From Candidatus Anderseniibacteriota bacterium (GTDB lineage Bacteria; Patescibacteriota; JAUYIX01), in the NCBI GenBank assembly GCA_046350905.1, contig JAXLZN010000002.1:65293-129292 (forward strand): a stretch of 64,000 nucleotides of DNA, given 5' to 3'. Below, piece by piece: positions 2,353 to 61,033 of this stretch (position 1 is its first letter; the number at the start of each line of letters is the position of its first letter). Made by a program: the position numbers and the translations under genes. The notes beneath the pieces are model-generated. The model was not told the origin of the DNA. It worked only from the letters and a program-made list of their open reading frames with translations, and did no database searches.

Positions 2353-2388
<36 letters not shown>

Positions 2389-2394
2389 TCCCCA

Positions 2395-2429
<35 letters not shown>

Positions 2430-2790
2430 TCCCGAGCGAGGTATAACGCGTTAACGACTCAGAGCGTGTCGAACGCGAAGCCTGGTACCCATCGTTTACG
2501 GCGTGGTTCCTGGGGTATCTAATCCGGAATTCCGCTCCCCACGCTTTCGTCCCTGGATGTCAGTGTTGGCCAGCTGACTGCCTTCGCAATTGGTGTTCTT
2601 CCCGATCTTAACGCATTTCACTGCTACACCGGGAGTTCCATCAGCCTCTCCGACCTCGTCTGGTATCCAGGCCAGATCGACGGTTGAGCCGTCGGATTTT
2701 AAGCTCGACTTTCGTAACCATTTGCCGGACGCTTTACGCCCAATGATTCCGGAAAACGCTCGAGGTCTCTGTATTACCGCTGCTGCTGGC

Positions 2791-3679: not shown

Positions 3680-4475
3680 ACAGAGTTAGCAACCTCTTAT
3701 TCCTGCAGTACCATCAGATCTTTTTCCTGCAGAAAAGCGGTTTACACTCCGAAGAGCTTCATCCCGCACGCGGCGTCGCGTCGTCAGACTTTCGTCCATT
3801 GCGAACTATTCCCAACTGCTGCCTCCCGTAGGAGTGGGACCCGTTCTCAGTGTCCCTGTGGCCGTACACCCTCTCGGGCCGGCTACCCGTCGTCGCCTTG
3901 GTGGGCTTTTACCCCGCCAACTAGCTGATAGGCCGCAGACTCCTCCCAAAGCGCAAAAGCTTTACCTACGTAGCCGAAGCTACGCAGACACATTCGGTAT
4001 TAGACCCGCTTTCGCAGGCTTATGCCGAACTTCGGGGCAGATTATCTACGTGTTACTCACCCGTTTGCCACTAGCGTGTAGTTCCCGACATCCGTCGGGC
4101 ACGCCCGTTCGACTTGCATGTTTTAGGCACGCCGCCAGCGTTATTCCTGAGCTAGGATCAAACTCTCAGAACGAGTTCGATCACTCAAAGGTTAACGTTT
4201 GCATGCACCGTACGCACGTGCCGGGACAAACCCGACCGTTAGCAGCACGGTGCTTCTGTCACGTTCCAGTTGTCAAAGTCCATCGATGAAACCGTGCGCT
4301 CAACTCGCGTCGAGCGTGGCTCACGTCACGTGCGGGTTGTCTGGTAGCGGCTTGCACCGCTAGCCCGCGTTTCGGTGGGTTTCCAAGCAGGACCCTCAAT
4401 CCGTTCGCGCCCGAGCAGGCTAGGTCAGGTTGCCGAGCACGTCAAGGACCCGCCTGTGCGTGGGCGGTGGACAGC

Positions 4476-44930: not shown

Positions 44931-44977
44931 ACCACCCTCGGTAGCCGGCTCGCGCGCCAGCTACCGAGGTTCTACGT

Positions 44978-46336: not shown

Positions 46337-48361
46337 ATGCTGTTCAACCTTCGACTCGAGTACCTCGCGATCGGTGTCGCAGCCCTGGCGCTGCTCTTCG
46401 CGGTGCTACTGACAATTCGCATCAAGGCAACCAAGGGTGGCGACCGCTTTATGGAAGAGATTGCACGCGCCATCCGTGAGGGCGCCTTTGCCTACCTCAA
46501 GCGGCAGTACATCGTCGTGGGCGGCCTGACCGTCCTCGGCGCCGCGGCCCTCTACTACTTTGTGAACTGGCAGACCGCGGTGGGCTTTTTGGCAGGCGCG
46601 GTCACCTCGCTCATCGCCGGCCTGATCGGCATGTGGATCGCTGTCCAGGCGAACGTCAAAACGGCCGAGGCGGCTAAGGAAACCCTCGGCAAAGCCCTGC
46701 GCGTGGCGTTCACCGCTGGCACGGTCACCGGCATGGTGGTCGTGGGGCTCGGCTTGCTCGGCGTGGCTGGGTTCTACCTCTGGCTCGGTGACCCGATGCT
46801 GCTGATCGGCTTTGGCTTTGGTGCCTCGCTCGTTTCGCTCTTTGCGCGCGTGGGTGGCGGCATCTACACCAAGGCAGCGGACGTGGGTGCGGACCTGGTC
46901 GGCAAGGTCGAGAAAGGCATTCCAGAAGACGACCCCCGCAACCCGGCGGTCATCGCCGACAACGTGGGCGACAACGTGGGCGACACGGCTGGCATGAGCG
47001 CCGACCTCTTTGAGACGTACGTGGTCACGCTGCTCGCTGCCATGATCTTGGGCGGCACGGTCGCGGTGGCCGGGGTCGGTGGCGTGCTCTACCCGCTGGC
47101 GCTCGGTGCGATCGGCGTGCTGGCTTCGATCATCGGCTCGTTTTTTGTCCGGCTGCGTGGAACCAACATCACGGGCGCTCTCTACAAAGGTGCGGGTGCC
47201 GCGTTGGTGCTGAGCGGCGTTGGCTTTTACGTCTTTAACCGGATGTACGCGGGCAACGACCTCAAGCTCTTTGGCGCCACGCTCGTTGGGTTGGCCGTTA
47301 CGGTCCTGACGATCGTCATCACCAACACCTTTACGGCTCGCAACCGTCGCGCGGTCTACGAGATCGCCAAGGCTTCTGAGACTGGCCCCGGCACCAACAT
47401 CATTGCTGGCCTCGCGGTGGGGTTGCGTTCGACCTGGCCGATGGTGGTTACGATTGTGGCGGCCATCCTGACGGCCTACTACCTGGCGGGCCTGTACGGT
47501 ATCGCGATTGCAGCGGTGGCCATGCTCTCGAGCATGGGCATCATCGTGGCGATCGACGCCTACGGTCCGATCACGGACAACGCGGGCGGGATTGCGGAGA
47601 TGAGCAACCTGCCGGCCAAGGTACGCAGCAAGACCGACGCGCTGGATGCCGTGGGCAACACGACCAAGGCCATCACCAAGGGCTACGCGATTGGCTCGGC
47701 GGCACTCGCCACGCTGGCGCTGTTTGCAGCCTACGCAGACGAGATCCGCGGGTACCTGAGCCAAGCCGGTCTGTCGCACAGCTTTAGCCTGGAGAACCCG
47801 CTCGTGCTGGTTGGACTGTTCATCGGTGCGGCGCTGCCGTTCTTCTTTGCCAGCCAGCTCATGACCGCGGTCGGCAAGGCAGCCTTTACGGTGGTCGAGG
47901 CGGTTCGCCAGCAGTTCAAGACCAAGAAGATTATGGAAGGCATCGACAAGCCGGACTACGGCCAGGTCGTCGACATCGTGACGCGCGCGGCGCAGAAGTA
48001 CCTGGTGCTGCCGGCGGTCGTCGCGGTTGCGGTGGCGCTGCTGGTCGGCTTTGGGCTAGGGCCCGTGGCGCTCGGTGCGCTCCTGATCGGCCTGATCGTG
48101 AGCGGCTTCTTCCTTGCCATCATGATGACGACCGGCGGTGCTGCCTGGGACAACGCCAAGAAGTACGTCGAGGCGGGACAGTTCGGCGGCAAGGGCTCTG
48201 ACGCGCACAAGGCTGCCGTCGTCGGCGACACCGTGGGTGACCCGTTCAAGGACACGGCTGGTCCGGCGCTCAACTCGCTCATCAAGGTGGTCAACACGCT
48301 GGCCGTGATCTTCGCTGGGCAGTTTGCCCTGCACCACTGGCTCGATAAGTTTTTCCGCTAG
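46337..48361 (+). CDS. hppA: membrane-bound proton/sodium-translocating pyrophosphatase
   Basis: Intact 674-aa ORF with GGIYTKAADVGADLVGKVE, DNVGDNVGD and GDTVGDPFKDTAGP. Confidence 0.95.
   Translation: MLFNLRLEYLAIGVAALALLFAVLLTIRIKATKGGDRFMEEIARAIREGAFAYLKRQYIVVGGLTVLGAAALYYFVNWQTAVGFLAGAVTSLIAGLIGMWIAVQANVKTAEAAKETLGKALRVAFTAGTVTGMVVVGLGLLGVAGFYLWLGDPMLLIGFGFGASLVSLFARVGGGIYTKAADVGADLVGKVEKGIPEDDPRNPAVIADNVGDNVGDTAGMSADLFETYVVTLLAAMILGGTVAVAGVGGVLYPLALGAIGVLASIIGSFFVRLRGTNITGALYKGAGAALVLSGVGFYVFNRMYAGNDLKLFGATLVGLAVTVLTIVITNTFTARNRRAVYEIAKASETGPGTNIIAGLAVGLRSTWPMVVTIVAAILTAYYLAGLYGIAIAAVAMLSSMGIIVAIDAYGPITDNAGGIAEMSNLPAKVRSKTDALDAVGNTTKAITKGYAIGSAALATLALFAAYADEIRGYLSQAGLSHSFSLENPLVLVGLFIGAALPFFFASQLMTAVGKAAFTVVEAVRQQFKTKKIMEGIDKPDYGQVVDIVTRAAQKYLVLPAVVAVAVALLVGFGLGPVALGALLIGLIVSGFFLAIMMTTGGAAWDNAKKYVEAGQFGGKGSDAHKAAVVGDTVGDPFKDTAGPALNSLIKVVNTLAVIFAGQFALHHWLDKFFR
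48329..48361. repeat. direct repeat copy 1 (last 10 codons plus stop of hppA)
   Basis: CTGCACCACTGGCTCGATAAGTTTTTCCGCTAG is identical to 57025-57057. Confidence 0.95.
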
Positions 48362-49185: not shown

Positions 49186-49974
49186 CTAGTCGCGCGCACT
49201 CTGCTGCCAGAACGAATTGAATAGGGCGCGCAGCATGCCGACGATGTACTCGTCCGTGATGACAACCGCGATGGGCGTCTTGGGTTGCCACAGCACCACC
49301 TTGTTGGCAAAGAGCTGAATCCCGGTGACAAACGGTGTCACTCCACGTAGTACCCGGGTTTCTCGCAGCTCGGCGACGTCCTTTCCCTTGAGGGTCTCCG
49401 TATCGGGGCTCGGCAGGAGCAGCGCATTAATCTTGATGCCCTTGCGCACGCGTGTGGCGATCCAACGCCGTTCCTCCGCCCACGAGATAAAGCCGATAAA
49501 ATCCTTAGCCGAACCCAGGAACTCCGTCGTCCCCTTGGCCTCATCGAGGATCTGGTAGAAGAGCTTGAGAAACTGATCACGCCCCTCCAGCACCTGGACC
49601 TGCGTCGCGGCGCTGCCCTGCCGGTACATGGCGAGCAAGTCGGGGAGTGCCCCCACGATGTCTTGGTCGTAGGTAGCGAGCGACTCACGCTTCTTACGTA
49701 GCAGCTCGCGCACGGTCGTGGGTGGTTCGACCACAAAGGTGCGTGCGTAGCGCCTGCGTTCCGAAAAGCGTGCCAACCCCTTACGCTCGAGGCCCTGGAT
49801 GAGCTTGTACATGTTGGGTCTCGAGATGCCGAGTCCTTTGGAGAGGGCGGCTAGCGACGCCGGCCCCATTGCCAGCGATAGCACGTAGAGCGCCGTTTCC
49901 TGTTCCGTAAGCCCCAGTTCCCGCAGCGAACTGTACAAGAGACGTTTAACTTGGCTTTGGCTGAGCTTGGCCAT
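49186..49974 (-). CDS. TrmB-family transcriptional regulator (paralog 1)
   Basis: 262-aa ORF with an N-terminal winged HTH (LGLTEQETALYVLSLAMGPASLAALSKGLGISRPNMYKLIQGLERKGLA) plus a TrmB-type C-terminal domain. Same architecture as 57894..58709. Confidence 0.8.
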   Translation of the reverse strand: MAKLSQSQVKRLLYSSLRELGLTEQETALYVLSLAMGPASLAALSKGLGISRPNMYKLIQGLERKGLARFSERRRYARTFVVEPPTTVRELLRKKRESLATYDQDIVGALPDLLAMYRQGSAATQVQVLEGRDQFLKLFYQILDEAKGTTEFLGSAKDFIGFISWAEERRWIATRVRKGIKINALLLPSPDTETLKGKDVAELRETRVLRGVTPFVTGIQLFANKVVLWQPKTPIAVVITDEYIVGMLRALFNSFWQQSARD

Positions 49975-50014
49975 GTCTATCTAATATAAGTATATAGATA
50001 GTATACACATATAA

Positions 50015-50073
50015 TAAATAAAGTCAATACAAAGCCAAATAGTATTGACTAATACGCTATAGTGCGCTATACG
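50015..50073 (+). promoter_or_regulatory. shared operator-like block plus candidate promoter (cassette 1)
   Basis: TAAATAAAG-N13-AAATAG-TATTGACT (50015-50050) matches 58781-58815. There is a dyad AGTCAATA/TATTGACT (50022-29/50043-50). TTGACT (50045-50), 17-nt spacer, TATACG (50068-73). A 5'-UTR hairpin CCAAAC/GTTTGG lies at 50082-50100. GACAAAGGAGA lies at 50127-50137. Confidence 0.5.
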
Positions 50074-50143
50074 TACCGGTTCCAAACAAAAGCCGTTTGG
50101 ACCTCTCGCAAGGGAGAATGTTCCTCGACAAAGGAGACTTATC

Positions 50144-50383
50144 ATGAAGATGAACTGGTCAGACATGAAGACCCTGCCCCGACGTTCCGAGAGGGACGGC
50201 GAATACCTCCTTGGTTTTGGTTTCGTGTTTCCCGACGAGTTCGTCGGTGAGGCCGAGGACCCGGAAGCGCCTCCAAGATTCATCAGCGGTGGGTGGACCA
50301 GGGCGGGGGTGACTGTCTTTCGTGATCGCGACGGCAGCCTGTACGCGGTGCCGTGCGAGGTATTCACCGGATGCAGTGGATGA
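50144..50383 (+). CDS. hypothetical 79-aa protein (first cistron of cassette 1)
   Basis: ATG lies 6 nt after AAGGAGA. MKMNWSDMKTLPRRSERDGEYLLGFGFVFPDEF...GCSG. No family recognised. Confidence 0.55.
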   Translation: MKMNWSDMKTLPRRSERDGEYLLGFGFVFPDEFVGEAEDPEAPPRFISGGWTRAGVTVFRDRDGSLYAVPCEVFTGCSG

Positions 50384-50411
50384 GCCTCTGGGTTAGACAG
50401 ATTTCCTGTGC

Positions 50412-50512
50412 GCAACGCAGCTGCGCAATGCTGCGACCGTTCGGCCAACATACATCGTTTTGGTTGGCCCTCCGTCAGAGCTGCCCTTGTCCGGCGGCTC
50501 TGACGGGGAAAC
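50412..50512 (+). promoter_or_regulatory. conserved three-hairpin RNA element, copy A (candidate cis-regulatory RNA)
   Basis: Aligns with 60550-60643. P1 at 50416-21/50430-35, P2 at 50443-49/50463-69, P3 at 50472-85/50493-506. Ends GGGGAAAC, 4 nt before the ATG at 50517. Confidence 0.6.
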
Positions 50513-50516
50513 ACAC

Positions 50517-51983
50517 ATGACCAAGCAACCAACCATCAAGAAATTAAAGAAAGTTGTCGTACTCGACACTATTTTTTTCTACCCCGAGCACCGGGCGGTC
50601 TTGGAGCAGCTCGCGGATGAAGTCATCGAGTACCCCTCGAGCCTGCCGGAGTCGCTCGAACGGCAGTACGTCGACAACCCGGAGCTATTCCGCAACGTTC
50701 GTTGCTACACGGAGCTCGGCGCCAACAATTCCTCGCTCCAGCTCCTCATGAACCGCATCGATGGCGCCGACTGTGTCATCAGCTGCTGGACGTGCATTCC
50801 TGACGAGATTCTCAAGCTCAACCCGCAGCTCAAGCTGATCGTCTTCTGGACGCACGAGAAGGAGCACCGCCTCAACCTCAAGCTCGCCGAGCAGTTCGGC
50901 ATCACCGTGACAAACATTCCCGACTACGGCACTGACGCGGTCGCGGAGGTCGTCTTTGCGGGACTGCTCGAGGTGCTCGCCAAGAACTACGTTACGCACA
51001 CGCTGCCGCAGAACGAGGAAAGCCTCGCCCTCACGGTCATGCACGAGCTGCTCCGCCGCCGCCGCATGCTCGACCGCAACGAGAAGTACACGCGGGCTGG
51101 GAAGTTCGTGCACCACTTCCACAAGCTCGGCAAGATCACCTTTGATCCCGGGCAGCGGACGCTCGATGAACTTATTCCAGAACGGCTGCTCGCGCGCGCC
51201 GGCGTAGCGCTCATCGGACAGCAGCCGTACGCACATCTCCGCACGTGGTTGCGAGCCTTTGAGGTGGTTGTCGATGAGCTGCCTGTGTTTGACGCGAGCA
51301 AGGCGGAGTTCTACCGCACGCTCGCCCGAAATGACTTCGTCGTGATCAGCAGCAATGAGCTCGATCCGAAGCTCGTGCAGAAAATCAATCTGCTCGCGGG
51401 TGTCAAGGTCGTCGACCTTGCGCAGCTCAAGACGATCGACTGGAGCGTCGCGGGCAAACGCTTTGGCGTGCTCGGTCTCGGCCGCATTGGTTCCAAAGTG
51501 GCGCGGGTCGCGCGCGACGTTGGATTTGAAGTGCAGTTCGCCGCGCGGGTCCCTGCTGCTCGTAGCGACCACCGCCACGTCTCAGTCAGTGAGCTGCTCG
51601 CAACTTCTGACGTGCTCTCGGTGCACCTTCCGGCGCACAAAGCCGACAACTTTTTGTCGGCCGATAAGCTCGCGCTCCTCAAGAAGGGCGGCATCTTCAT
51701 CAACACCGCTGACGGCAACATCACCGACACCGCCAAGCTGACCGAGCTCCTCAGCGCGAACCACGTGCTGGCCTACCTCGACGTCTACCCCGGCCTGCCG
51801 CGCAAGGATGTGTTCGGCTTGCCAATGGAGGACAAAGCGGACTGGAAACTCAAGGCTGCGCTCCCGCGCCACGTGCTCGCCTACCGCGCGGGCTGGAAGA
51901 CGCAGGAATCAATTCGAGTCAAAACCTTTGAGCTGCTCGGCCACATGGTCGACTACCTCACCTCGCACCCCCATGCCCACTGA
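50517..51983 (+). CDS. atypical D-isomer-specific 2-hydroxyacid dehydrogenase-family protein with large internal insertion
   Basis: Catalytic-domain pattern (..LKLIVFW..FGITVTNIPDYGTDAVAEVVFAGLL) and NAD fold GVLGLGRIGSKVARVARDVGFEV. More than 100 extra residues separate them. INTADGN replaces the family NxxRG motif. Confidence 0.7.
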   Translation: MTKQPTIKKLKKVVVLDTIFFYPEHRAVLEQLADEVIEYPSSLPESLERQYVDNPELFRNVRCYTELGANNSSLQLLMNRIDGADCVISCWTCIPDEILKLNPQLKLIVFWTHEKEHRLNLKLAEQFGITVTNIPDYGTDAVAEVVFAGLLEVLAKNYVTHTLPQNEESLALTVMHELLRRRRMLDRNEKYTRAGKFVHHFHKLGKITFDPGQRTLDELIPERLLARAGVALIGQQPYAHLRTWLRAFEVVVDELPVFDASKAEFYRTLARNDFVVISSNELDPKLVQKINLLAGVKVVDLAQLKTIDWSVAGKRFGVLGLGRIGSKVARVARDVGFEVQFAARVPAARSDHRHVSVSELLATSDVLSVHLPAHKADNFLSADKLALLKKGGIFINTADGNITDTAKLTELLSANHVLAYLDVYPGLPRKDVFGLPMEDKADWKLKAALPRHVLAYRAGWKTQESIRVKTFELLGHMVDYLTSHPHAH

Positions 51984-52842
51984 ACGCCAAACGCGAGCAA
52001 CCTTCAACCGGCTCAAGCGGTTCTACGACGCGAGCTGGGACCCCAAACGTAAGACGCTCCACGTCGGTCTGTTCCGACAAGCGGACGACTCCCTGCAGCG
52101 TGCCTACGCGAACGCGACGAGCTACCTGCTCGAGCTCGTCAACGAGCAGCGGCGCATCACCGCGCAATCGGTTGTGCTCGACGTTGGCTGCGGTACAGGA
52201 CAAACGTTGCTCGACCTGTGTGCACGCGTTGGCTGCCGTGGCGTCGGCCTCGATCTGAGCGACGCGCAGGTTTCGCACGCGCGGGCTGACCTCCGCGCCC
52301 GGAATGCGCTGCGAGTCAAGCGCAACCTGCCAAAGCTGCGCTGCACGTTCATCCGCGGCAGTGCGAGCGTGCTCACGCGCCACGTCGGGGCCCGGCCGGA
52401 GTTCACGCACGTGATCAGCCAGGACGCGCTCTTCCTCGCAGCCAACAAGCAGCGCGCGTTCCAGGGCATCGCTACGGTACTTGTCCCAGGCGGCGTGGTC
52501 GGCATCGCAGACTTCCTGCAGCAGGCCTCTGCCGCACGCTACAGTTCGCCCGCCCGTCGCGCGATCTTCAAGGTGGTCAACTGGCAGGAGGGTTTGTCGT
52601 TCGAGCGGTACCAGCGTGCGCTACGTACAGTCGGACTCGACGTCGTCCACGCCGAGCAACGCGATCGCGACATGATCAAGACGTACACGCTGCTCGTCCG
52701 GCAGCTCGCAGCGTTCATCGACCGTCACCCAACCTACCGCACGCTGCGCGAACGGTACCAGAGCATCGTTGCTGCGGTGCGCGCAGGCAAGATGGGGTGG
52801 GCGCTCTGCATCGCGCGCAAGCCGCTCACCGCACGCCAATGA
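51973..52842 (+). CDS. class I SAM-dependent methyltransferase
   Basis: ATG at 51973 overlaps the upstream stop by 11 nt. VLDVGCGTGQTLLDL (motif I), GVGLDLS, and LVPGGVVGIADF (post-II). The N-terminal HVGLF....SLQRA is typical of small-molecule MTases. Confidence 0.8.
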   Translation: MPTERQTRATFNRLKRFYDASWDPKRKTLHVGLFRQADDSLQRAYANATSYLLELVNEQRRITAQSVVLDVGCGTGQTLLDLCARVGCRGVGLDLSDAQVSHARADLRARNALRVKRNLPKLRCTFIRGSASVLTRHVGARPEFTHVISQDALFLAANKQRAFQGIATVLVPGGVVGIADFLQQASAARYSSPARRAIFKVVNWQEGLSFERYQRALRTVGLDVVHAEQRDRDMIKTYTLLVRQLAAFIDRHPTYRTLRERYQSIVAAVRAGKMGWALCIARKPLTARQ

Positions 52843-53582
52843 AGTACGTCATCGGCAACTGGAAGATGAACCCGACCGAGCTGCCCCGCGCGCTCGAACT
52901 GATCCGCGCGACCGAGGCAGCAATCCCGGCCGGCACACCGCGCGGCTGCGTAGCGATCGCGGCACCGTTTGTGTACCTCCACCCGCTTGCCTGCGAGACC
53001 GCTGCCGTCGCACTCGCCGCGCAGGACACCTTCTGGGATCAGGCTGGCGCGTACACTGGGCAGGTCTCGCCCGCCATGCTGAAGGGTCTGGGCGTGCGGT
53101 ACGTCTTGATCGGCCACAGCGAACGCCGCACGCACGCATTTGAAACCGACGCACACATCACGCATAAGGTGCGCGCTGCTCTCGACGCCAATCTACGCGT
53201 GATCCTCGCGGTCGGCTCGCGCGCTCGATCAGAAGCAGCGGTCCTGCGTGACATCCGTCGGCAGCTGCGGGTGCTCGACGTACTCGGCAGCGGTCGTGCG
53301 CAGGGTCGCCGGGATTTGCTCATCGCGTACGAACCGCTCGTGGCGATCGGCACCGGGCAGGCGGCACCAGTCGACCACGTGCGTCGCGTCGCTGCAGAAA
53401 TCAGCAGACTGTCCGGGGCACCCGTGCTGTACGGCGGCAGCATCAGCCGCAAGAACGCGAGCACGTACCTCGCGCTGCCGGAGCTTGCTGGCGTGCTCGT
53501 CGGGAGCGCGAGCCTGCGTGCGCGCGAGTTCGCTGCAATTATCCAGGCTGCCGAGCAACTCTCCCACCACCATGACTCCTAA
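52839..53582 (+). CDS. tpiA: triosephosphate isomerase
   Basis: ATGA overlap with the methyltransferase stop. IGNWKMN, IGHSERR, YEPLVAIGTG and YGGS motifs. The loop-6 Trp of the usual EPxWAIGTG is Val here. Confidence 0.8.
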   Translation: MKYVIGNWKMNPTELPRALELIRATEAAIPAGTPRGCVAIAAPFVYLHPLACETAAVALAAQDTFWDQAGAYTGQVSPAMLKGLGVRYVLIGHSERRTHAFETDAHITHKVRAALDANLRVILAVGSRARSEAAVLRDIRRQLRVLDVLGSGRAQGRRDLLIAYEPLVAIGTGQAAPVDHVRRVAAEISRLSGAPVLYGGSISRKNASTYLALPELAGVLVGSASLRAREFAAIIQAAEQLSHHHDS

Positions 53583-54222
53583 GAAAATCATTCTCGCCGG
53601 CACCAAGCCGCACTCCATCGCACGCGTCATTGGGCGCCACCTGCACGAGCAAGGCTGGGACGTGTGGCTCTACAGTCGTCACGCCAAGCGGGTCGAGCAC
53701 ACTCGCTGGCACGAGCGTCGCTGCGACGTAACGAAATCGGCTGACATTGCACGCCTCCTCTCAGAGGTTGGTACGCCGCAGGCTGTGGTGTTCAGCGCTG
53801 ATTCGGATGGCCACGGCACCATCCAACGTATTTCTGAACGGCGGCTCCGTGCGCTCATCGATGCCAAAGTGACGGGCAGCATTCTCTTGACCAAGCGCGT
53901 GCTCGCACATTCGCGCAAGCCGGTTTCACTCGTGTGGCTGATCGGCAAGATTGGGGTCAAGCCACAGGACCTCTTCCTGTACGGCGTCGTCAACGCGGCA
54001 GTCGTTGCCTTCGTAGATCAGCTCAAAGCGCTGGGTCGAACGGTGCGACCGTACATGCTGCCGCTCGGGGTGATCACGCCATCGACGCTCGGTGATGCGT
54101 ACCTGCGCCAGAATCCCGGGAAGCAGCTTGCGACGGATTCGCCGGTGAACGTCGCACGTTTCGTCGCTCGCATCCTCCGGGGGGGGGTACGCATCCGGTA
54201 CCGTACAAAGGGATCAATCTGA
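53572..54222 (+). CDS. short-chain dehydrogenase/Rossmann-like protein with degenerate SDR motifs
   Basis: ATG at 53572 overlaps the tpiA stop by 11 nt. KKIILAGTKPHSIARVIG sits in place of TGxxxGxG. LYGVVNAAV sits in place of YxxxK (no Lys). Confidence 0.55.
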   Translation: MTPKKIILAGTKPHSIARVIGRHLHEQGWDVWLYSRHAKRVEHTRWHERRCDVTKSADIARLLSEVGTPQAVVFSADSDGHGTIQRISERRLRALIDAKVTGSILLTKRVLAHSRKPVSLVWLIGKIGVKPQDLFLYGVVNAAVVAFVDQLKALGRTVRPYMLPLGVITPSTLGDAYLRQNPGKQLATDSPVNVARFVARILRGGVRIRYRTKGSI

Positions 54223-54325
54223 GATGGTGTAGCACCGCTCGCAATCCGTGATTGCCGTTGCTTGGTCGGGATGTGACCTGACCAGGAAACGGAAATTACG
54301 GAACGTCCTTCACAAGGGAGAAAAC

Positions 54326-54658
54326 ATGAAAAATACTGTGCAGCTCGGGTACCTGCTCCTCCTCATGCTCTCTTTTTTCAACGCGATATTCGGCTCCCAA
54401 CAGCCAACGCTTAGCAGGCTGCTCTGGGCTCTCTTCTACAGCACGTTGGTTATTGCATTCGTGCTGAAACCGCCCGCAGACGATGGGTATGTCGGTGCCG
54501 CCCGAATCGTATACGCGTTTGCGTTACTGATGATGGCTGGATCATGGATTGGTCGAAGTCCAACCCCCATCACGTCAATGTGGAGTGCCATTACTTTTGT
54601 TGTAGCTGCCGACAACTGGCTGCTCTGGAGTAAGTGCCGGACCGAGAGCGATCAGTAA
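54326..54658 (+). CDS. hypothetical small membrane protein (3-4 TM helices)
   Basis: ATG lies 6 nt after AAGGGAGAA. MKNTVQLGYLLLLMLSFFNAIF.. GC is lower than in the upstream operon. Confidence 0.6.
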   Translation: MKNTVQLGYLLLLMLSFFNAIFGSQQPTLSRLLWALFYSTLVIAFVLKPPADDGYVGAARIVYAFALLMMAGSWIGRSPTPITSMWSAITFVVAADNWLLWSKCRTESDQ

Positions 54659-54682
54659 CGTCTTGAAATCTGACGTCGCAGT

Positions 54683-54724
54683 GCCGCCTAGTAGGTCTTC
54701 GGGCTGAACGGCGGCTTCTCTTTG
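54683..54724 (+). terminator. terminator-like hairpin after cassette 1
   Basis: GCCGCC (54683-88) pairs with GGCGGC (54710-15), followed by TTCTCTTT. Confidence 0.45.
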
Positions 54725-54811
54725 GCAAGAACTATGGGGAGCCACCTCCACGCGTGCAGCTGTCCATGCCAACACCCTCATGGTGATCTTCGAGATCGGC
54801 TGGACAGCGGC

Positions 54812-56308
54812 CTACAAACCGCTGCGGCCAAACTTCTTCTCAGATTCGTCGAACTTCCTCTTGAGCTCTTCTGAGCGAAAGAATACATGGCGAGCAGGGT
54901 CGTAGAGAAACCCCATCTGCTCGAACCCCTCGGGCGTGGCGCGTGGATCGCCTGGCGGTAAGCGAAACACTGCTGCCATCTGCTCGAGTGTGTAACGAGG
55001 AATCCAGGTGGCGGGCTGCTCTTGCAGCTGCGACGTTAGCGCGAGCATCCGTTTGCTGACCGAGGCGACTGTATCGTCCGCTGAAATGGGAACCCGCAGA
55101 GAGGCCTCAATGCGCTGCCCGACTTCTTCGACCACTCCTATCCGTCGCACGATGGCACGGTTCGCTTGTGAGAGGTGGTCCCAGCCGATGGTGATCGCAC
55201 CCTCGTTGCCCACGTTCTTAGCGTTGGCTGTGGACATGAGCGTCTCGATGTTCTTGTCGAAGAGCTCCTCTACCGCTGGTATGAGGGGCGGCTCAATCAC
55301 TTCATGAATGAGGCTGCGTTCGGTGAGCAATGTACTACCGGATAGCTCAATGGGCTGCACAGCACGCATGGACGGCGACAGAGGTTCGACCTGGTCCGAC
55401 CCTTCAGCCTCGTCGATGGGCTCTACGGCGCTCTCATTGGGCCAAGGCTCGCGGTTGTCAAAGTAAAGGCCGCCATCGCGCACGGCCTGTTTGGCATCGC
55501 TGCCTTTCATGCTCGGCGCCCTATTGAAGAGCATGACTAGGTCGAACTTCTCCGTCCGCTCCTTGAACTGACTTAACGTTTCTGGCAGGAGGGTAACGAC
55601 GTAGTCCACGCCGCCATGCTTAAAGTGGAGCGTCCTGTGGGTTGTATCGTAGCGGGCCTGCCGGTCGTAGCTGCTCTTGATGCGGTCAACCAGAGCCGCG
55701 ACGTGGCGGTCATCAAGTACGGGATCAACCAGCGTGATGTCTCGGGCACCTGCCAGAATCGCCAGCTCGACGTCGTCCGCTGAACCAAAGTACACGGCCC
55801 GCCGGTAGTGCTCCGGCTCACCTGTAGCAGTGGCATGCTCACTGATCATTTGAGCAAAATGCAGCTTGTCGCGCTTGATCGTGTCCGCAAAGCCAATTGA
55901 GTGGACCTGTAAGTTTCTGGCTAGCACCTGTTCTGCAGGTGGGAGTTTCTCGACTTGGCGCTCGAATTCACGCCGGGTAAGCTCGGCGTTCGCATACATA
56001 TCGGCGAAATCGACGATGTTTTGGTCAAGCGCTGCCCGGTCGACGTGCGCTGCATCAAGCTCGTTCATCGCCGCGTGTGTCTCTATGGCACGCTCGAGCA
56101 CTCCGTTGAGGGTCTCATCGTCGATCTGCGGATGACCGGCCTTCCAACGTTCGGCAGAAACGGTTTGACGGTTCGTAGCCTCCTCAGTCTCGAGCTGCGC
56201 AGGTTGTTCGCCAGGCTGCGACGGCGGCAGGATGCCCTCGTCCTCTCGAGGATCTGGGGCAGGTGCATTCTCTTTCTTAGTGGCCATGCCTGTATGGTAC
56301 TCCTCCAT
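54812..56308 (-). CDS. hypothetical 498-aa protein (acidic N-terminus; possible Rossmann-like core)
   Basis: Intact ORF in a lower-GC region. AVYFGSADDVELAILAGARDITLVDP resembles a nucleotide/SAM-binding beta-alpha-beta strand. No family recognised. Confidence 0.55.
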   Translation of the reverse strand: MEEYHTGMATKKENAPAPDPREDEGILPPSQPGEQPAQLETEEATNRQTVSAERWKAGHPQIDDETLNGVLERAIETHAAMNELDAAHVDRAALDQNIVDFADMYANAELTRREFERQVEKLPPAEQVLARNLQVHSIGFADTIKRDKLHFAQMISEHATATGEPEHYRRAVYFGSADDVELAILAGARDITLVDPVLDDRHVAALVDRIKSSYDRQARYDTTHRTLHFKHGGVDYVVTLLPETLSQFKERTEKFDLVMLFNRAPSMKGSDAKQAVRDGGLYFDNREPWPNESAVEPIDEAEGSDQVEPLSPSMRAVQPIELSGSTLLTERSLIHEVIEPPLIPAVEELFDKNIETLMSTANAKNVGNEGAITIGWDHLSQANRAIVRRIGVVEEVGQRIEASLRVPISADDTVASVSKRMLALTSQLQEQPATWIPRYTLEQMAAVFRLPPGDPRATPEGFEQMGFLYDPARHVFFRSEELKRKFDESEKKFGRSGL

Positions 56309-56516
56309 TCTGCTTGCGCGTGAGCTTCTTTCAACCTTCCGGCAGTACTCTTTACATTTCGCGCAGCATGAACAAGTTCGCTCAGCACCTCGAATAACGC
56401 GGGCCCCTTTACGTATTCACGCAATATGGTTTGATGCGTGCATGGGTGTGGAAACTCCCGGACCAGGCGAAGCTGGGAACGCAGACAAATCAATTGTACG
56501 AGAGCGCGAGGCGGCC

Positions 56517-56969
56517 ATGCAGCGCTACGCCGGCCGCACGTTCAAGACTGAGAAGGGATGGACCTACACGTACGATGACCGCGGGCGTACGACGCGACAG
56601 CAGGCTGAAACCGGACACACGCACGCCCCGCAAGATCTCACGGTTTTTGTCGAAATGAACGTAGAAGAGAAACTATCCTTTGCTGCCGCAATGCATGCAG
56701 AAAATGACGACCCGGCATCAAAGGAAAAGGTTTACGTCGTTGAACGAGGCTCCGACAATCAGCCTCGGATCGTGGAATCGTGGGCAGATATTACCGACCC
56801 ATCGAAGCTATCTATTGCGATTGTGCGTGATGGCAAAATGCTGAGGTTCAAACCGGTCACGCTTCGGCCTAGGGTTGGTTCGTACGTCTTTGATACGAGG
56901 CTATTTCGAGACCGGCACGGCAAGTCGTACAAAGAGAGGCACTTGGGGCACAGAGTTACTGAAGTATAG
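56517..56969 (+). CDS. hypothetical 150-aa protein (alternative start 56442)
   Basis: MQRYAGRTFKTEKGWTYTYDDRG..., with GAGG 5 nt upstream of the ATG. No family recognised. Confidence 0.45.
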   Translation: MQRYAGRTFKTEKGWTYTYDDRGRTTRQQAETGHTHAPQDLTVFVEMNVEEKLSFAAAMHAENDDPASKEKVYVVERGSDNQPRIVESWADITDPSKLSIAIVRDGKMLRFKPVTLRPRVGSYVFDTRLFRDRHGKSYKERHLGHRVTEV

Positions 56970-57020
56970 GTAGTAGAAAAAGTCTTCGGTTAGCTGATGC
57001 TGGGCCGAATATGCTCTACG

Positions 57021-57057
57021 TTCGCTGCACCACTGGCTCGATAAGTTTTTCCGCTAG
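57021..57057. repeat. direct repeat copy 2: orphan hppA 3' fragment
   Basis: 57025-57057 is identical to 48329-48361. TTCGCTG (57021-27) matches 48311-17 if 14 nt (GGCAGTTTGCCCTG) are deleted. There is no hppA body upstream. Confidence 0.95.
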
Positions 57058-57081
57058 ACTGCAGGATCTCGAAGAGCGAAC

Positions 57082-57107
57082 AGAGCGCGGCCGGTAGGCC
57101 GCGCTCT
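57082..57107. terminator. strong hairpin (probable original hppA terminator; also directly follows the stop of the convergent 57111 gene)
   Basis: AGAGCGCGGCC-GGTA-GGCCGCGCTCT, an 11-bp perfect stem. The T-tract is weak on both strands. Confidence 0.5.
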
Positions 57108-57110
57108 TGC

Positions 57111-57884
57111 CTATTGAGCGCTGTCTGTTTGCGTAGAGGATGGGGCCCAGGTAAATCGAACATTTGCGTCGTAGTAGTCCAGCGAACCGTGGCCGGAGTA
57201 CTCCCACCCTTCCGTCGCTAGGATGCCGCGGGGAGATGGCGTAAGGGTGTGCGAGGGTCCTTCCAAAGAATCATCCAGTCCCAAGCCAATTTTCAGCATA
57301 GCCTTATCGTAGTAGGCATCTAAGAACTTTGGCATGGTGAGTTCGCTCAATCGATAATCACCGATAGGACCCTTCACTGGCCCCGGCTTTTGTTCAAAAT
57401 CGGCAATTGCGCTTTTAAGCTCCTCAGGGGGGTTTCCAGAAAAGATTCGTTCCACGTATTCTTTTGCGAGTTCGGGTAACTTGTCATATCGCCCTTTGAT
57501 TGACGGCTCTCTGGAAACAAGGGCCCAGCTTCGTCTTACGGAGTCGTTGAAATCGTCACGTGAAACAAACTCACCGCCGTAGTATGCCTGCTCACCTTTT
57601 GGAACATGCCTCAACACAAGCTTGGAAAGTCTTTCCGCAGTAAGCGGCGCTCCCTCCTCGTCATGTTGAACCCTGAAAATGAGAACGAGGTCATTCTCCT
57701 TGGCGACATCAATGTCTCTCTTGGAGAAGGGTAATGGAGGAATATCGCGTTCAGGAATCTCGATTTTGAGAAACTCAGAAACTTGCTTAGGCCCGATAAC
57801 ATCCCTCCCGAGTATACTTTCCGCGTATTCCAGGTTGGCCTTTTCGTTCTTGCCTTCTGGATTGATGCTTCCGATTTCGCGCAC
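57111..57884 (-). CDS. hypothetical 257-aa protein, co-oriented 9 nt downstream of TrmB paralog 2
   Basis: Intact ORF with low GC. No family recognised. Confidence 0.55.
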   Translation of the reverse strand: MREIGSINPEGKNEKANLEYAESILGRDVIGPKQVSEFLKIEIPERDIPPLPFSKRDIDVAKENDLVLIFRVQHDEEGAPLTAERLSKLVLRHVPKGEQAYYGGEFVSRDDFNDSVRRSWALVSREPSIKGRYDKLPELAKEYVERIFSGNPPEELKSAIADFEQKPGPVKGPIGDYRLSELTMPKFLDAYYDKAMLKIGLGLDDSLEGPSHTLTPSPRGILATEGWEYSGHGSLDYYDANVRFTWAPSSTQTDSAQ

Positions 57885-57893
57885 GGCTTATTG

Positions 57894-58709
57894 TTAGGTC
57901 TTACTGCTTGAGGATACTCCAGCCCACGCCAGCTCAAAGATCATGACCATCATGTCGTGAATGGTTTTGTCCTCGATGATCGTAGCAGCAAACTGAGGAC
58001 CGCTGAAGTTGATTATCGAGACCTTGTTGATACCATAGACGGTAATGTCGCTCTTATACGGAAAGAGCTTCTGCGGCACGTGCCGGACTTTTGGCCAAAT
58101 CTTCTTTGAGTAGCCTGCGTAGATGGTCTTGCTGTAGTCCACATCGACTTCGGTGTAGGGCAGCACGGCTCGGGCTGTGATCGACAGCTTCTCTTTCCTA
58201 CGGATGTACGTGTGAATGAACTTCTCGGGCAGGAACTTCAGCAGATCCGCAGTGTTCGCAAATGCCAGCATTTCGTAGGGCCCCTTCCCTGATACGTGGT
58301 CCTCGAAGACCTTCAGGACGCCCTCTTTACCCTCAAAGAACCTGACAATCGGCTTGTTAGCGGCGTGCGAGTAGAGCCCCTCCAGCGTAGGGAGGAGAGC
58401 CTGCATGCTCTCGAGGTCTCGCTTGGCGAGGGTGATACGAGACTGCGCATGCCGTTCTAGGCTCTTGGGGTTCTCAACCTGGTAGAAGAGCTTGTTGCGC
58501 TTCTCAAGCTCAGAAACGAGTCCTTTGACGGCCAGGTTCTCCAGCACTTTGTAGGTAGTGCTGCGGTTGAGCTTGGTGAGTTCCGCAACCTTGGATGGGT
58601 AGGCCCCACCTGCTTGGAGGAGGGCAGCGTAGACAGCAGCCTCCTTTCCAGCCAGCCCGGCTTTCCTGAGCTGTTTTTGGATGTTGCTGTCTTCAGTAGC
58701 CATCTGCAA
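57894..58709 (-). CDS. TrmB-family transcriptional regulator (paralog 2)
   Basis: 271-aa ORF with a wHTH (AGLAGKEAAVYAALLQAGGAYPSKVAELTKLNRSTTYKVLENLAVKGLV) and a C-terminal domain colinear with 49186..49974. Confidence 0.8.
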   Translation of the reverse strand: MQMATEDSNIQKQLRKAGLAGKEAAVYAALLQAGGAYPSKVAELTKLNRSTTYKVLENLAVKGLVSELEKRNKLFYQVENPKSLERHAQSRITLAKRDLESMQALLPTLEGLYSHAANKPIVRFFEGKEGVLKVFEDHVSGKGPYEMLAFANTADLLKFLPEKFIHTYIRRKEKLSITARAVLPYTEVDVDYSKTIYAGYSKKIWPKVRHVPQKLFPYKSDITVYGINKVSIINFSGPQFAATIIEDKTIHDMMVMIFELAWAGVSSSSKT

Positions 58710-58780
58710 ACCAGTCTACGCTGTATTACCAATTTTGTCAATTCTAACGAACAAAATGAAAGTAGAATGAAATATTTGTT

Positions 58781-58836
58781 TAAATAAAGCCATAAACAGC
58801 AAATAGATTGGCATTGTAGAAGCACAAAATATGAAT
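58781..58836 (+). promoter_or_regulatory. shared operator-like block plus candidate promoter (cassette 2)
   Basis: TAAATAAAG-N11-AAATAG-ATTGGCA (58781-58813). TTGGCA (58808-13), 17-nt spacer, ATGAAT (58831-36). A 5'-UTR hairpin GTTTCC/GGAAAC lies at 58855-70. GACAAAGGAGA lies at 58880-90. Confidence 0.5.
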
Positions 58837-58899
58837 TCCGAGCTACAAAGATCTGTTTCCAAAGGGAAACAAATTCATTGACAAAGGAGATAGAACGCC

Positions 58900-60519
58900 A
58901 TGGCTAAGCCCAAGGTGCTGTTCGTCAAGGCCGCGCAGGAGAGCGATGCTACCTGGGACCCGATCCGGATGAGCCCTAACCAGGGCCTCTGGTACCTGGC
59001 CTCGGAGCTGCGCGAGCAGGGCTACTACGTGCGTCTCATCGATGAGACCACGCGCCACGGCGGACTCCACAAGCACTCCATGGTGCACCGCACGATCAAG
59101 CTGGCCACCAAGGCTGGCGAGGTCGACGAGGTGTACGAGGTGCCTGTGGTGACGCCGTTCGCCGATCATATCCGGAGCAAGATGGAAGACTTCGAGCGGC
59201 TCTCCCCTGGAGAGTTCGTCGAGAAGCACTCCGCCTTCCGGATTCCCGGCGAGATCAACCGCACGGTCGTCCGGACCGGCAACCCCATCGAGCACACGCT
59301 CGAGGACATCGAGCGGGAGCTGGCCAGCGGAGACGCGGTGATCGTGGGCATTCCGTTGCCTGCCACCTCGAACTACGTTTCGGCCACTCGGCTCGGCAAG
59401 GCCATCAAGGACACCTTCGGCCAGCACGTGAAGGTGATCTACGGTGGGCAGCACATCACGGCGATGCCGGGGCAGTTCCTCAAGGACAACCCCTGGGTCG
59501 ACGTGGCCGTGTGCGGGGATGCCGTGACGACGATCGAGCGGGCGCTCCAGTGCGCGCTCGATGGGACCACCAAGGTCGTCTGGAGGATGTGCGGGGATAA
59601 GACGGCGAGGCAGGAGGACATTTCCTGCTACCCGCTGCTCGACCCCACGCTCCTCGAGGAGAACGAGTACCCGACGCGCCCCAACCATACGTTCGATACG
59701 GATGGGCGCAGGTGGGTGGACTTCATGACCTCCAAGGGTTGCGGGCTGAGCTGCGAGTTCTGCGGCGTCAGCGGCATTCCCAAGGAGGAGAAGAAGTACT
59801 CGGCGATTCCGCTCGATAAGCTCGAGCAGCAGCTCTTGCTGTTCAAGCGGGCGGACATCTCCGAGCTCGTGATCCAGGACGACGCGGTCCTGTCGAACAA
59901 GCTTCTCCCGGGGGCAGTCGCGCTCTTCAAAAAGCACGGCTTCTCCTGGCAGAACAACGGCGGCATCGAGTACGAGAGGATCGACGATGCAACCGTGGAG
60001 CAGTGGAGCGCGTACAACCGCTCGGGCGAGGGTCGCACCACCGCGCTCTACGTGCCCTTCAATCCACGCGAGTGGAACGAGGGGCAGAGCGCTGGCGTGA
60101 CCCAGACCCAGCGGCGGCCCCACGTGGTCGAGCTCCTCAAGAAGCTGCGCGAGTCTGGCTGCTACGTGTTCTCTTCGGAGATCATCGGGCAACCGACCGA
60201 GCGGCGCGAGGAGTCCGGGCGCGATACGGCCCGGTACATCGACCTGGTGCGTGAGGGCTACATCGATCAGGCCCTCACGTTTTCCGCCACAGTCCTGCCG
60301 GGCACCAAGTGGTCATGGAAGCACGGCGCCCTCGTGGTCAGTAGCATTGACTACGTCGGGTACAGCCTGTTCACCACGCACCACCGCACCTACTGCATCT
60401 CCGACCCGCGCGAGATCGAGCGCTGGGTGGTTGAGCGGAACAAGACGCTCAACGAGGTGCAGCGCTCCTACGCCTGGGGCACGGCGTTTCCAAACGTCGG
60501 GCCGCAGGTGGGTGAGTGA
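58900..60519 (+). CDS. B12-binding-domain radical SAM enzyme (class B-like)
   Basis: Intact 539-aa ORF. N-terminal Rossmann-like cobalamin-binding-type region (VLFVKAA...GLWYLASELREQGYYVRLID..., ..VIVGIPL..., VIYGGQHITAMP). Radical SAM CxxxCxxC (GCGLSCEFCG, 59740-59763). Confidence 0.8.
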   Translation: MAKPKVLFVKAAQESDATWDPIRMSPNQGLWYLASELREQGYYVRLIDETTRHGGLHKHSMVHRTIKLATKAGEVDEVYEVPVVTPFADHIRSKMEDFERLSPGEFVEKHSAFRIPGEINRTVVRTGNPIEHTLEDIERELASGDAVIVGIPLPATSNYVSATRLGKAIKDTFGQHVKVIYGGQHITAMPGQFLKDNPWVDVAVCGDAVTTIERALQCALDGTTKVVWRMCGDKTARQEDISCYPLLDPTLLEENEYPTRPNHTFDTDGRRWVDFMTSKGCGLSCEFCGVSGIPKEEKKYSAIPLDKLEQQLLLFKRADISELVIQDDAVLSNKLLPGAVALFKKHGFSWQNNGGIEYERIDDATVEQWSAYNRSGEGRTTALYVPFNPREWNEGQSAGVTQTQRRPHVVELLKKLRESGCYVFSSEIIGQPTERREESGRDTARYIDLVREGYIDQALTFSATVLPGTKWSWKHGALVVSSIDYVGYSLFTTHHRTYCISDPREIERWVVERNKTLNEVQRSYAWGTAFPNVGPQVGE

Positions 60520-60549
60520 CGTGCCACCGAGGATGTCGCATCAGCGACC

Positions 60550-60643
60550 GCAACGCAGCTGCGCAGCGCTGCGACATGGCCAACTCATTGATTAGTTGGC
60601 CCTCCGTCAGAGCCGCTCTTCTCGGCGGTTCTGACGGGGAAAC
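60550..60643 (+). promoter_or_regulatory. conserved three-hairpin RNA element, copy B
   Basis: P1 at 60554-59/60568-73, P2 at 60578-84/60595-601, P3 at 60604-16/60625-37, ending GGGGAAAC. Lies between the radical SAM stop and the 106-aa ORF. Confidence 0.6.
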
Positions 60644-60673
60644 CCGATCGTACATTAGAGAGGAGAAACCAAA

Positions 60674-60994
60674 ATGAACTCTGCCGAAAAGTTCGTGCGT
60701 TTGTCCGAGGCCAATTTGATCACCGAGTGCACCCAGATCAAGACCTCGTTCCACGACCTCAAGCGGCTGACCATCAACACGGTCGGCATGATGCGTATCC
60801 AGTTCCAGGGCGACGTGCCCCGGATGCGCACGCAGAACTGGGATGGTAGCTACGACGTGGACATCTACTCCGATAGCGTCGTGACCATTCACGACCAGCA
60901 CGGAGTCCACTGCTACGTCGTGACCTGGTCCAAGCGGAGCGACAAGCTGCCGACCACGCACATCCTGCCGCGCCTCCCGGAGGTCGAGGACTAG
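60674..60994 (+). CDS. hypothetical 106-aa protein (last cistron of cassette 2)
   Basis: ATG lies 8 nt after GAGAGGAGAAA. MNSAEKFVRLSEANLITECTQIKTSFHDL... No family recognised. Confidence 0.6.
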   Translation: MNSAEKFVRLSEANLITECTQIKTSFHDLKRLTINTVGMMRIQFQGDVPRMRTQNWDGSYDVDIYSDSVVTIHDQHGVHCYVVTWSKRSDKLPTTHILPRLPEVED

Positions 60995-61001
60995 CGGCAC
61001 T

Positions 61002-61033
61002 AAGGGCGCCCGGAAAGATTTCCGTGCGCCCTT
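61002..61033 (+). terminator. terminator hairpin after cassette 2
   Basis: AAGGGCGC...GCGCCCTT with an inner CGGAA/TTCCG stem, followed by TAATGTT. Confidence 0.55.

Follow-up and report, generated by a model that had tools for sequence, protein, structure and literature searches.

The 64 kb stretch of Candidatus Anderseniibacteriota DNA analysed here (the window; 62% GC), part of a 130 kb contig of a metagenome-assembled genome, carries a compact array of hairpins, copy B, directly 3′ of the gene for a B12-binding radical S-adenosylmethionine (SAM) protein (rSAM), and a related array, copy A, in a second gene cassette ~10 kb upstream. Judged by its substitution pattern and wobble pairs, the element is a selected RNA structure of the + strand, and in the orthologous loci its conserved association is with the 3′ end of the rSAM transcript. 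We class it as a lineage-restricted, conserved RNA structure of a 3′ untranslated region (3′ UTR) or intercistronic region, most likely with a familiar type of function. At a probability of roughly 45%, we favour a role as a leaky 3′ end or stability barrier without a U-tract, which would favour the upstream gene.

Structure and selection of the element

Copies A and B agree at 83 of 102 positions (81%; E=3e-20 in a BLAST search of the spacer between rSAM and the downstream open reading frame (ORF), ORF106, against the window). On the B side the homology starts at 60549 or 60550 and ends at 60643 (GGGGAAAC). Neither BLAST nor a covariance model built from A and B, which scores copy B at 103 bits, detected a third copy in the window, and the model found no additional copies in 11 fetched loci. 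Three hairpins, H1, H2 and H3, are common to the folds of both copies, as an earlier reading of this DNA (the original prediction) had described. Copy B also carries a fourth hairpin, H0, which lies outside the A/B homology, yet is part of the orthologous element. The positions given in the original prediction are all correct (rSAM stop at 60519, end of copy B at 60643, next ATG at 60674). It had placed the start of copy B 30 nt after the stop, which is where the A/B homology starts, but the conserved H0 puts the start of the element 15 nt after the stop.

The minimum free energy of copy B is -54.7 kcal/mol. On the + strand, the z-scores of the folds are -6.9 for B and -6.2 for A, and 0 of 200 shuffled sequences folded equally well. 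The U-tract is missing after both copies; the tail of B reads AAACCCGAUC and that of A AAACACACAUG (AAACACACAU), and H2 and H3 join without a gap that could hold one. The element is thus not a classical intrinsic terminator, and the original prediction was borne out in this respect for both copies in this genome. A search of the whole window against Rfam 15 gave no match at the gathering threshold. Around both copies nothing relevant was found at E<=10, the best sub-threshold matches scoring 16-18 bits with E>0.5.

Substitutions avoid the stems. Between A and B, 2 of 56 stem positions and 18 of 47 other positions have changed (Fisher p=8e-6), and both stem changes are of the G-C/G.U type and preserve the pairs. 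The same stem-avoiding pattern separates copy B from its counterpart in a related locus, L006 (p=2e-6). Every wobble pair, including the two in H3 of copy B (G.U and U.G), is a G.U pair when read on the + strand; on the opposite strand it would become an A.C mismatch. The two H3 hairpins have energies of -30.6 and -29.5 kcal/mol on the + strand against -22.4 and -26.5 kcal/mol on the - strand, an advantage of 3-8 kcal/mol. The wobbles and the energy gap argue for a sense-strand RNA and against a site in double-stranded DNA.

Compensatory changes occur in H0 of L005 (GUCGU/ACGAC, C-G to U-A), in H1 of L001 and L009 (the second pair is U-A in place of C-G) and in H2 of L006 (pair 7 is G-C there and C-G in the four other sequences); the H2 cells are 100% paired in five sequences. 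The loops differ in their constraint: the H1 loop motif GCGCA is invariant in 5/5 aligned sequences, and the H2 loop varies freely in both respects, length and sequence. Between L001 and L009 the element is identical at 81/81 positions, although there are 9 differences in the last 52 nt of the adjoining gene, and the flanking sequences are unrelated (p=1.4e-4). The H1 loop (60560-60567 in B, 50422-50429 in A) also carries the self-complementary UGCGCA, with the core GCGC present in 5/5 sequences, which could in principle allow loop-loop kissing between two RNA copies.

A 53-codon open frame runs across copy B (60516-60677). It begins with a GTG that shares bases with the rSAM stop (GTGA) and closes with a TGA that shares bases with the ORF106 start (ATGA), an arrangement resembling a relay for translational coupling. 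We rejected it as a coding sequence: a 1-nt indel in the H3 loop puts A and B in different frames, and L006 has GTA in place of the start codon GTG. The open frame is probably a chance product of GC-rich DNA.

Table 1. Features of the two cassettes, in window coordinates
Feature	Position	Strand	Remarks
Second TrmB-family regulator	49186-49974	-	Divergent from ORF79 and the dehydrogenase gene
ORF79	50144-50383	+	Small protein gene; upstream of copy A
Copy A	50411-50512	+	Between ORF79 and the dehydrogenase gene; tail AAAC
H1 of copy A	50416-50435		
H2 of copy A	50443-50469		
H3 of copy A	50470-50508		
Long-form D-2-hydroxyacid dehydrogenase	50517-51983	+	Pfam PF02826, PF00389; first enzyme gene after copy A
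TrmB-family regulator	57894-58709	-	Divergent from the rSAM gene
B12-binding rSAM gene	58900-60519	+	539 aa; Pfam PF02310, PF04055; stop codon 60517-60519
H0 of copy B	60535-60548	+	5-bp hairpin GUCGC-AUCA-GCGAC; free energy -6.3 kcal/mol, z -6.2
Copy B (A/B homology)	60549-60643	+	Linker CGCAA, H1, H2, H3, tail AAAC
H1 of copy B	60554-60573	+	6 bp, CGCAGC / GCUGCG; 8-nt loop with GCGCA
H2 of copy B	60578-60601	+	Stem GGCCAACU / AGUUGGCC (7-8 bp), variable loop; -11.8 kcal/mol
H3 of copy B	60602-60639	+	GC-rich 16-bp hairpin abutting H2, followed by AAAC; -30.6 kcal/mol
Shine-Dalgarno sequence of ORF106	60658-60668	+	GAGAGGAGAAA; outside copy B
ORF106	60674-60994	+	Orphan gene; coding-type composition
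Hairpin followed by UUUAAUGUU	61002-61033	+	-22.1 kcal/mol; candidate terminator

Association with the rSAM gene

Among 5.8 billion proteins, the rSAM protein has four close relatives (P0002-P0005, 68-71% identity). The contigs of rSAM relatives were compared with the window, together with L009, a contig from the Joint Genome Institute (JGI) collection that was found by a DNA pattern scan. Another contig, L014, matches the window exactly and extends it by just 85 nt. A module of H0-H1-H2, with or without H3, is found 13-20 nt past the rSAM stop in the window, L001, L005, L006 and L009. In L006 (rSAM 68% identical) the stop is followed by H0, H1, H2 and the 5′ arm of H3, where the contig ends; in L005 (68%) the contig ends after H0 and the start of H1. 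L001 (71%) has H0, H1 and a 10-bp H2 followed by UUUAACUUUAUUUAUUUUUUU and a convergent triosephosphate isomerase (TIM) gene. L009, with a partial rSAM gene, has the same element as L001, followed by a same-strand gene for a 113-aa membrane protein. H0 is therefore conserved in all four loci. H3 is shared with copy A and, as a 5′ arm, with L006, and is absent from L001 and L009.

Other orthologues carry ordinary terminators at this place. In L002 and L003 (70% identity) a textbook terminator follows the rSAM stop (GGGGUCAGG...CUGACCC UUUUAUUAUUU), and in the more distant L010 and L012 textbook hairpins with U-tracts lie within a few nucleotides of the stop. The element therefore occupies the terminator position of an ancestrally monocistronic, TrmB-paired rSAM gene. 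The divergent TrmB-rSAM pairing is kept in L001, L002, L005 and L012. In the wider rSAM family (~40-47% identity), which spans Patescibacteria and DPANN archaea, the TrmB-rSAM pair comes without a conserved small ORF.

The original prediction regarded the element as a mark of the boundary between a small protein and enzyme genes, following the small ORF in cassette 1 and the enzyme gene in cassette 2. This symmetry is true of the present genome but not of its relatives. The module follows rSAM whatever comes next, be it the convergent TIM gene of L001 or the membrane-protein gene of L009, and its association is therefore with the rSAM 3′ end rather than with such a boundary. An H1-H2 pattern built to match every known variant was also scanned against sequence collections. 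The only match among the GTDB species representatives is the rSAM 3′ end of the L001 contig (one copy in the scanned contigs), and L009 is the sole match in the JGI metagenomes; two patterns tried on viral contigs gave no match. The single GTDB match indicates that the element is not a dispersed repeat.

Copy A has a different history. In L001, L007 and L008 the dehydrogenase gene (64% identity in L007 and L008; the orthologues start at the equivalent Met) begins 126 nt from the divergent TrmB gene, with almost no leader and with a promoter-like TTGACA-17-TAAATA. The covariance model detected no element upstream of these three genes, and there is no space for a small ORF. Of the loci compared, only this genome has copy A before the dehydrogenase. 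The original prediction had treated absence of the element from orthologous cassettes as telling against it; the element is absent from those of cassette 1 (L001, L007, L008) and present in those of cassette 2. Copy A has the H1-H2 linker GTTC, as L006 does, and an H1 loop ending in AAU, as in L001, and copy B differs at both, indicating that A did not arise recently from B and has been kept intact for some time. None of its 28 base pairs is broken, though 18 of 47 non-stem positions have changed. The possibility that cassette 1 is a decayed cassette 2 was rejected: only the element and a 17-nt stretch at a ribosome-binding site (RBS) are in common, and ORF79 is not similar to ORF106.

Predicted function and alternatives

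A promoter scan called no promoter between 60519 and 60674, and none between either copy and its downstream start. The best candidate for a hidden ORF106 promoter in or after the element, CTGACG-14 nt-TACATT, has the wrong spacing and was not called by the scan. The downstream genes would therefore have to be transcribed through both copies. ORF106 has no homologue other than itself among 5.8 billion proteins, but its composition (G+C of 0.91 at third and 0.36 at second codon positions) clearly points to a coding sequence, and, as no promoter was called, its transcription most likely depends on read-through at copy B. The hairpin at 61002-61033 is the probable true terminator of the rSAM-ORF106 unit and could serve a convergent DUF3800 gene too. 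Like this hairpin, another terminator-like hairpin of the window (44936-44969, with UUCUACGUUU) keeps a U-rich tail, indicating that the missing U-tract after H3 is specific to the element. A U-tract is required for termination by the RNA polymerase of mycobacteria, which are also high in GC, and hairpins without one did not terminate in vitro (PMC3993855). The TIM gene downstream of copy A also suggests that copy A is not an efficient terminator.

The downstream start codons relate differently to the two copies. As noted in the original prediction, copy A touches the start codon, its 3′ end (50512) lying 4 nt before the dehydrogenase ATG (50517), and copy B leaves the Shine-Dalgarno (SD) sequence of ORF106 outside the element, with the ATG 30 nt past its end. 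The only SD-like sequence of the dehydrogenase (GGGGA, -12 to -8) forms the 3′ base of H3 in copy A, paired with CUCC. The computed cost of opening positions -20 to +13 around this start is 28 kcal/mol, compared with 9.5-10.4 kcal/mol for the ORF106, rSAM and ORF79 starts; opening the ORF106 SD costs 4.3 kcal/mol. According to these calculations, copy A should strongly damp translation of the dehydrogenase unless H3 is cleaved or opened. Since copy B leaves the downstream SD free, occlusion of the RBS is not a function that the copies share.

In the reading we favour, the H0-H1-H2-H3 module of copy B would belong to the 3′ end of the rSAM transcript. In the lower-GC relatives L001 and L009, H2 and the U-rich sequence probably still terminate transcription; in the 62% GC genome studied here and in L006, the U-tract would have been replaced by the very stable, U-less H3. 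RNA polymerase would largely pass copy B into ORF106 and halt at the hairpin and U-tract at 61002-61033, and the H2-H3 stack may act as a pause or partial-termination site, a barrier to 3′-to-5′ exonucleases, or a processing site. The part of the mRNA that encodes rSAM would then outnumber or outlast the part that encodes ORF106. Copy A, as an older paralogue with H1-H3 only, would likewise favour ORF79 over the dehydrogenase-methyltransferase-TIM genes, and would additionally lock the RBS of the dehydrogenase inside H3. An effect on dosage or mRNA stability is the most economical function because the downstream genes must be read through the element. The original prediction had proposed that the element sets relative dosage through processing or stability. 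This outline stands, with the element intercistronic in both places, but the predicted polarity is between upstream and downstream gene and not between small protein and enzyme.

Several observations weigh against a role limited to stability or leaky termination. The invariant GCGCA loop and the 81/81 identity of L001 and L009, loops included, are superfluous for a plain stability or termination element. This constraint on sequence beyond the stems suggests a specific partner, be it a protein, an RNA or a ligand, or else a small RNA (sRNA) derived from the 3′ UTR. If the role were in stability only, it would be odd to keep a hairpin of -30 kcal/mol over the RBS of a TIM-containing operon. L006, the only other locus with H3, ends inside this hairpin and gives no downstream context. 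The covariation is weak, as only 5-6 instances exist: two pairs show double changes, a number reached by 203 of 500 shuffles. Read-through, 3′ ends and processing are all inferred from the sequence.

The best-placed competitor, which we consider unlikely, is that the module is a specific regulatory RNA, either a 3′ UTR-derived sRNA (H0-H1-H2, with H2 as its terminator in loci of the L001 type) or a cis element whose H1 loop is recognised by a protein or small molecule. It would coordinate the rSAM and dehydrogenase operons, with binding or cleavage of copy A opening H3 and freeing the buried RBS. The fixed H1 loop next to a variable H2 loop, and the complete identity of L001 and L009 beside diverged coding sequence, fit this proposal. 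So do the hairpins straight after the stop, the last with a U tail in L001, which is the known architecture of 3′ UTR-derived sRNAs, the adjacency of the two operons in L001 with a TrmB-type regulator on each, and the 28 kcal/mol occlusion at copy A. The invariant loop also makes binding of a common factor, the alternative offered by the original prediction, possible. However, no Rfam family matches, the fold consists of simple hairpins in series and lacks any junction or pocket, and no promoter lies upstream of the element. The relatives regulate the dehydrogenase without the element, L001 has no downstream gene for cis regulation, and the analysis brought up neither a candidate target nor a binding protein. 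A more far-reaching form of this proposal, which we regard as improbable, is a previously undescribed riboregulator of the candidate phyla radiation (CPR), whose H1 loop is bound by a protein, metabolite or RNA, which acts in or is released from the rSAM 3′ UTR, and which in this genome also gates translation of the dehydrogenase, methyltransferase and TIM genes by the opening of H3.

It is very unlikely that the element is a U-less intrinsic terminator that stops the rSAM transcript fully, with ORF106 and the dehydrogenase expressed from promoters that escaped detection. Its place is that of a terminator, canonical terminators stand there in L002, L010 and L012, H3 is very stable, and U-tracts are rare in a high-GC genome. 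Nevertheless, only 30 nt (B) and 4 nt (A), with no promoter-like site, separate the copies from the next start, the other terminator-like hairpins of the window keep their U-rich tails, and the mycobacterial polymerase is not stopped in vitro by hairpins lacking one (PMC3993855). A stop at copy A would silence the dehydrogenase, methyltransferase and TIM genes.

We give very little credence to the view that only copy B is a functional 3′ UTR structure and copy A is a neutral by-product of rearrangement. The relatives do lack copy A, and the region has been rearranged, as the place and orientation of TIM differ from L001 and 33-bp direct repeats are present. The linker and loop states shared with L006 and L001, which set copy A apart from a recent copy of B, and its complete set of base pairs despite the changes outside the stems are difficult to reconcile with neutrality.

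Least probable of all is a DNA-level or selfish element, such as a repetitive extragenic palindromic (REP) sequence or bacterial interspersed mosaic element (BIME), a miniature inverted-repeat transposable element, an integron attC-like site or TrmB operators: two copies with discrete boundaries in one genome, gene order that breaks immediately past the element in every relative, H2 arms (GGCCAAC/GTTGGCC) one base off the attC R″/R′ consensus, and the location of copy A inside an 8.7 kb segment between the 33-bp direct repeats are outweighed by a count of only two copies in 64 kb, one GTDB match, one JGI match and no viral-contig match, constant attachment to the same gene, wobbles and strand energies that indicate RNA, an H2 of ~25 nt that is far below attC length and has no L boxes, and AT-rich promoters of the TrmB regulators that have nothing in common with the element.

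Almost nothing is known about post-transcriptional control in the CPR (Patescibacteria), which cannot be grown alone. Purifying selection on this compact RNA structure is clear, and the functionally uncharacterised B12-rSAM gene to which it is attached is widespread in CPR bacteria and DPANN archaea. If the favoured reading is correct and transcript ends or stability are set without a U-tract, the element would show what a high-GC CPR lineage uses in place of classical terminators. A specific regulator would link the rSAM and dehydrogenase operons, and a riboregulator of the new kind would couple two operons of an uncharacterised pathway widespread in CPR and DPANN. The reach is small, with 5-6 instances in a handful of related metagenomic genomes and a likeliest function that is well known in kind.

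Genomic setting and comparison with known systems

The rSAM protein contains the CxxxCxxC motif, as CGLSCEFC. In cassette 1 the dehydrogenase gene is followed by genes for a SAM methyltransferase, TIM and a short-chain dehydrogenase (SDR). The rSAM gene and the gene for the ~490-aa dehydrogenase each have a divergent TrmB-family regulator, and in L001 the two are adjacent, together with TIM (L001 4653-9731; window 49186-60519). The two units adjoin in L001, in the order rSAM, TIM, TrmB, dehydrogenase, and this adjacency suggests that they are functionally linked. Both the rSAM and the long-form dehydrogenase families are widespread in Patescibacteria and DPANN archaea, and the TrmB/rSAM/dehydrogenase set has the appearance of a conserved pathway that is as yet uncharacterised. 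ORF79 and the rSAM gene have a common RBS context, GACAAAGGAGA, with a 17-nt match at 88% (approximately 50125-50141 and 58874-58890), and a small hairpin around TTCCAAA is found in both 5′ leaders. These common leader features could be a shared regulatory site.

ORF79 (G+C of 0.70 at third codon positions) has one homologue among 1.8 billion representatives, P0211 (43% identity, E=9e-11), with the common C-terminus FTGCSG, and by this conservation belongs to a real small-protein family. The promoter regions upstream of the two genes are AT-rich and homologous (window 49990-50075, L013 1-90), and the homologue (L013 196-447) is followed by stable, unrelated hairpins (z -3.8) and other small ORFs. 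The hairpins precede the next gene there too, which accords with the favoured reading. One of these (L013 556-804) has a 9-residue motif, T(Q/N)xW(D/N)GSYD, in common with ORF106, with a pairwise E of only 0.003. Should this similarity reflect kinship, the families of ORF79 and ORF106 would lie side by side in L013 and in separate cassettes here. Two dehydrogenase homologues, P0094 and P0117 (56% identity), have the same ~35-residue C-terminal extension (WRDRRExQASVxKTEDGGLRPPLASI), which may reflect read-through into conserved non-coding sequence downstream of the gene.

Perfect 33-bp direct repeats (48329-48361 and 57025-57057) bound the 8.7 kb that hold copy A. The left repeat is the 3′ end and stop codon of an H+-pyrophosphatase gene, and the right repeat is followed by a hairpin with a U-tract, a terminator at about 57084-57110. 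Within the segment lie three unknown ORFs (263, 498 and 245 aa), a 136-aa ORF, the TrmB gene of cassette 1, ORF79, copy A and the dehydrogenase, methyltransferase, TIM and SDR genes. The arrangement suggests that the segment was inserted into the end of the pyrophosphatase gene; the unknown ORFs gave no integrase or phage-family match. The GC content falls to 0.50-0.58 at the right end of the segment and beyond. Elsewhere in the window, the 16S rRNA gene (1809-4173, - strand) is interrupted, as is typical of rRNA genes in CPR bacteria: its two matching parts are separated by a group I intron (3384-3689) and by another gap without a match.

Several known systems resemble the element in part. 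A canonical intrinsic terminator shares with it the GC-rich stems and the place directly after the stop codon, and in L001 only, the U-rich tail of H2. It differs in that no U-tract of ~7-9 nt follows H2 or H3 here, that extra conserved hairpins lie upstream, and that the downstream genes, 4-30 nt away, have no detectable promoter. SD-sequestering hairpins and RNA thermometers are similar to copy A in the pairing of the SD-like GGGGA with CUCC at the base of H3, but at -30 kcal/mol this stem is far too stable for a thermometer. The REP and BIME families would be expected in many dispersed copies, as opposed to two in 64 kb and one GTDB match, and a scan of ORFs close to the cassettes found no RAYT gene. 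An integron attC site is an imperfect hairpin of 55-140 nt with R″RYYYAAC, R′GTTRRRY and L boxes. Only H2 resembles the R boxes, with one mismatch each, and no recombinase domain was found in the ORFs scanned around both cassettes.

Leaky terminator or attenuator hairpins follow the precursor-peptide genes of operons for lantibiotics and other ribosomally synthesized and post-translationally modified peptides (RiPPs), for instance between nisA and nisB. Cassette 1 has the same order of small ORF, hairpin and enzyme genes; in cassette 2 and all orthologues, however, the enzyme is the upstream gene. A RiPP reading was rejected: the rSAM protein gave only weak, sub-threshold matches to RiPP, P-methyltransferase and C-methyltransferase models, its conserved partner is TrmB and not a peptide gene, and nothing marks ORF79 or ORF106 as a precursor. 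The 3′ UTR-derived sRNAs of enterobacteria, such as CpxQ, SroC and DapZ, also lie a few nucleotides after a stop codon, consist of two to four hairpins and are more conserved than the adjacent coding sequence, and the L001 element ends like them with the mRNA's own terminator. The version in the window differs in having no terminator tail.

The favoured reading has its closest parallels in leaky terminators and in the intercistronic hairpins that stabilise mRNA, such as the REP sequences between malE and malF of Escherichia coli and the pufA-pufL hairpins of Rhodobacter. As in these stabilisers, stable hairpins without a U-tract lie between cistrons whose co-transcription is suggested by the lack of a promoter, and the upstream segment would be protected from 3′ exonucleases and expressed above the downstream one. 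Unlike the REP stabilisers, the element is not a genome-wide repeat: the window has two copies and a related genome has one. It also differs from the malE-malF and puf stabilisers in its make-up, as it combines four hairpins that are unlike one another, conserved linkers and a single conserved loop, and in being inherited with one particular gene.

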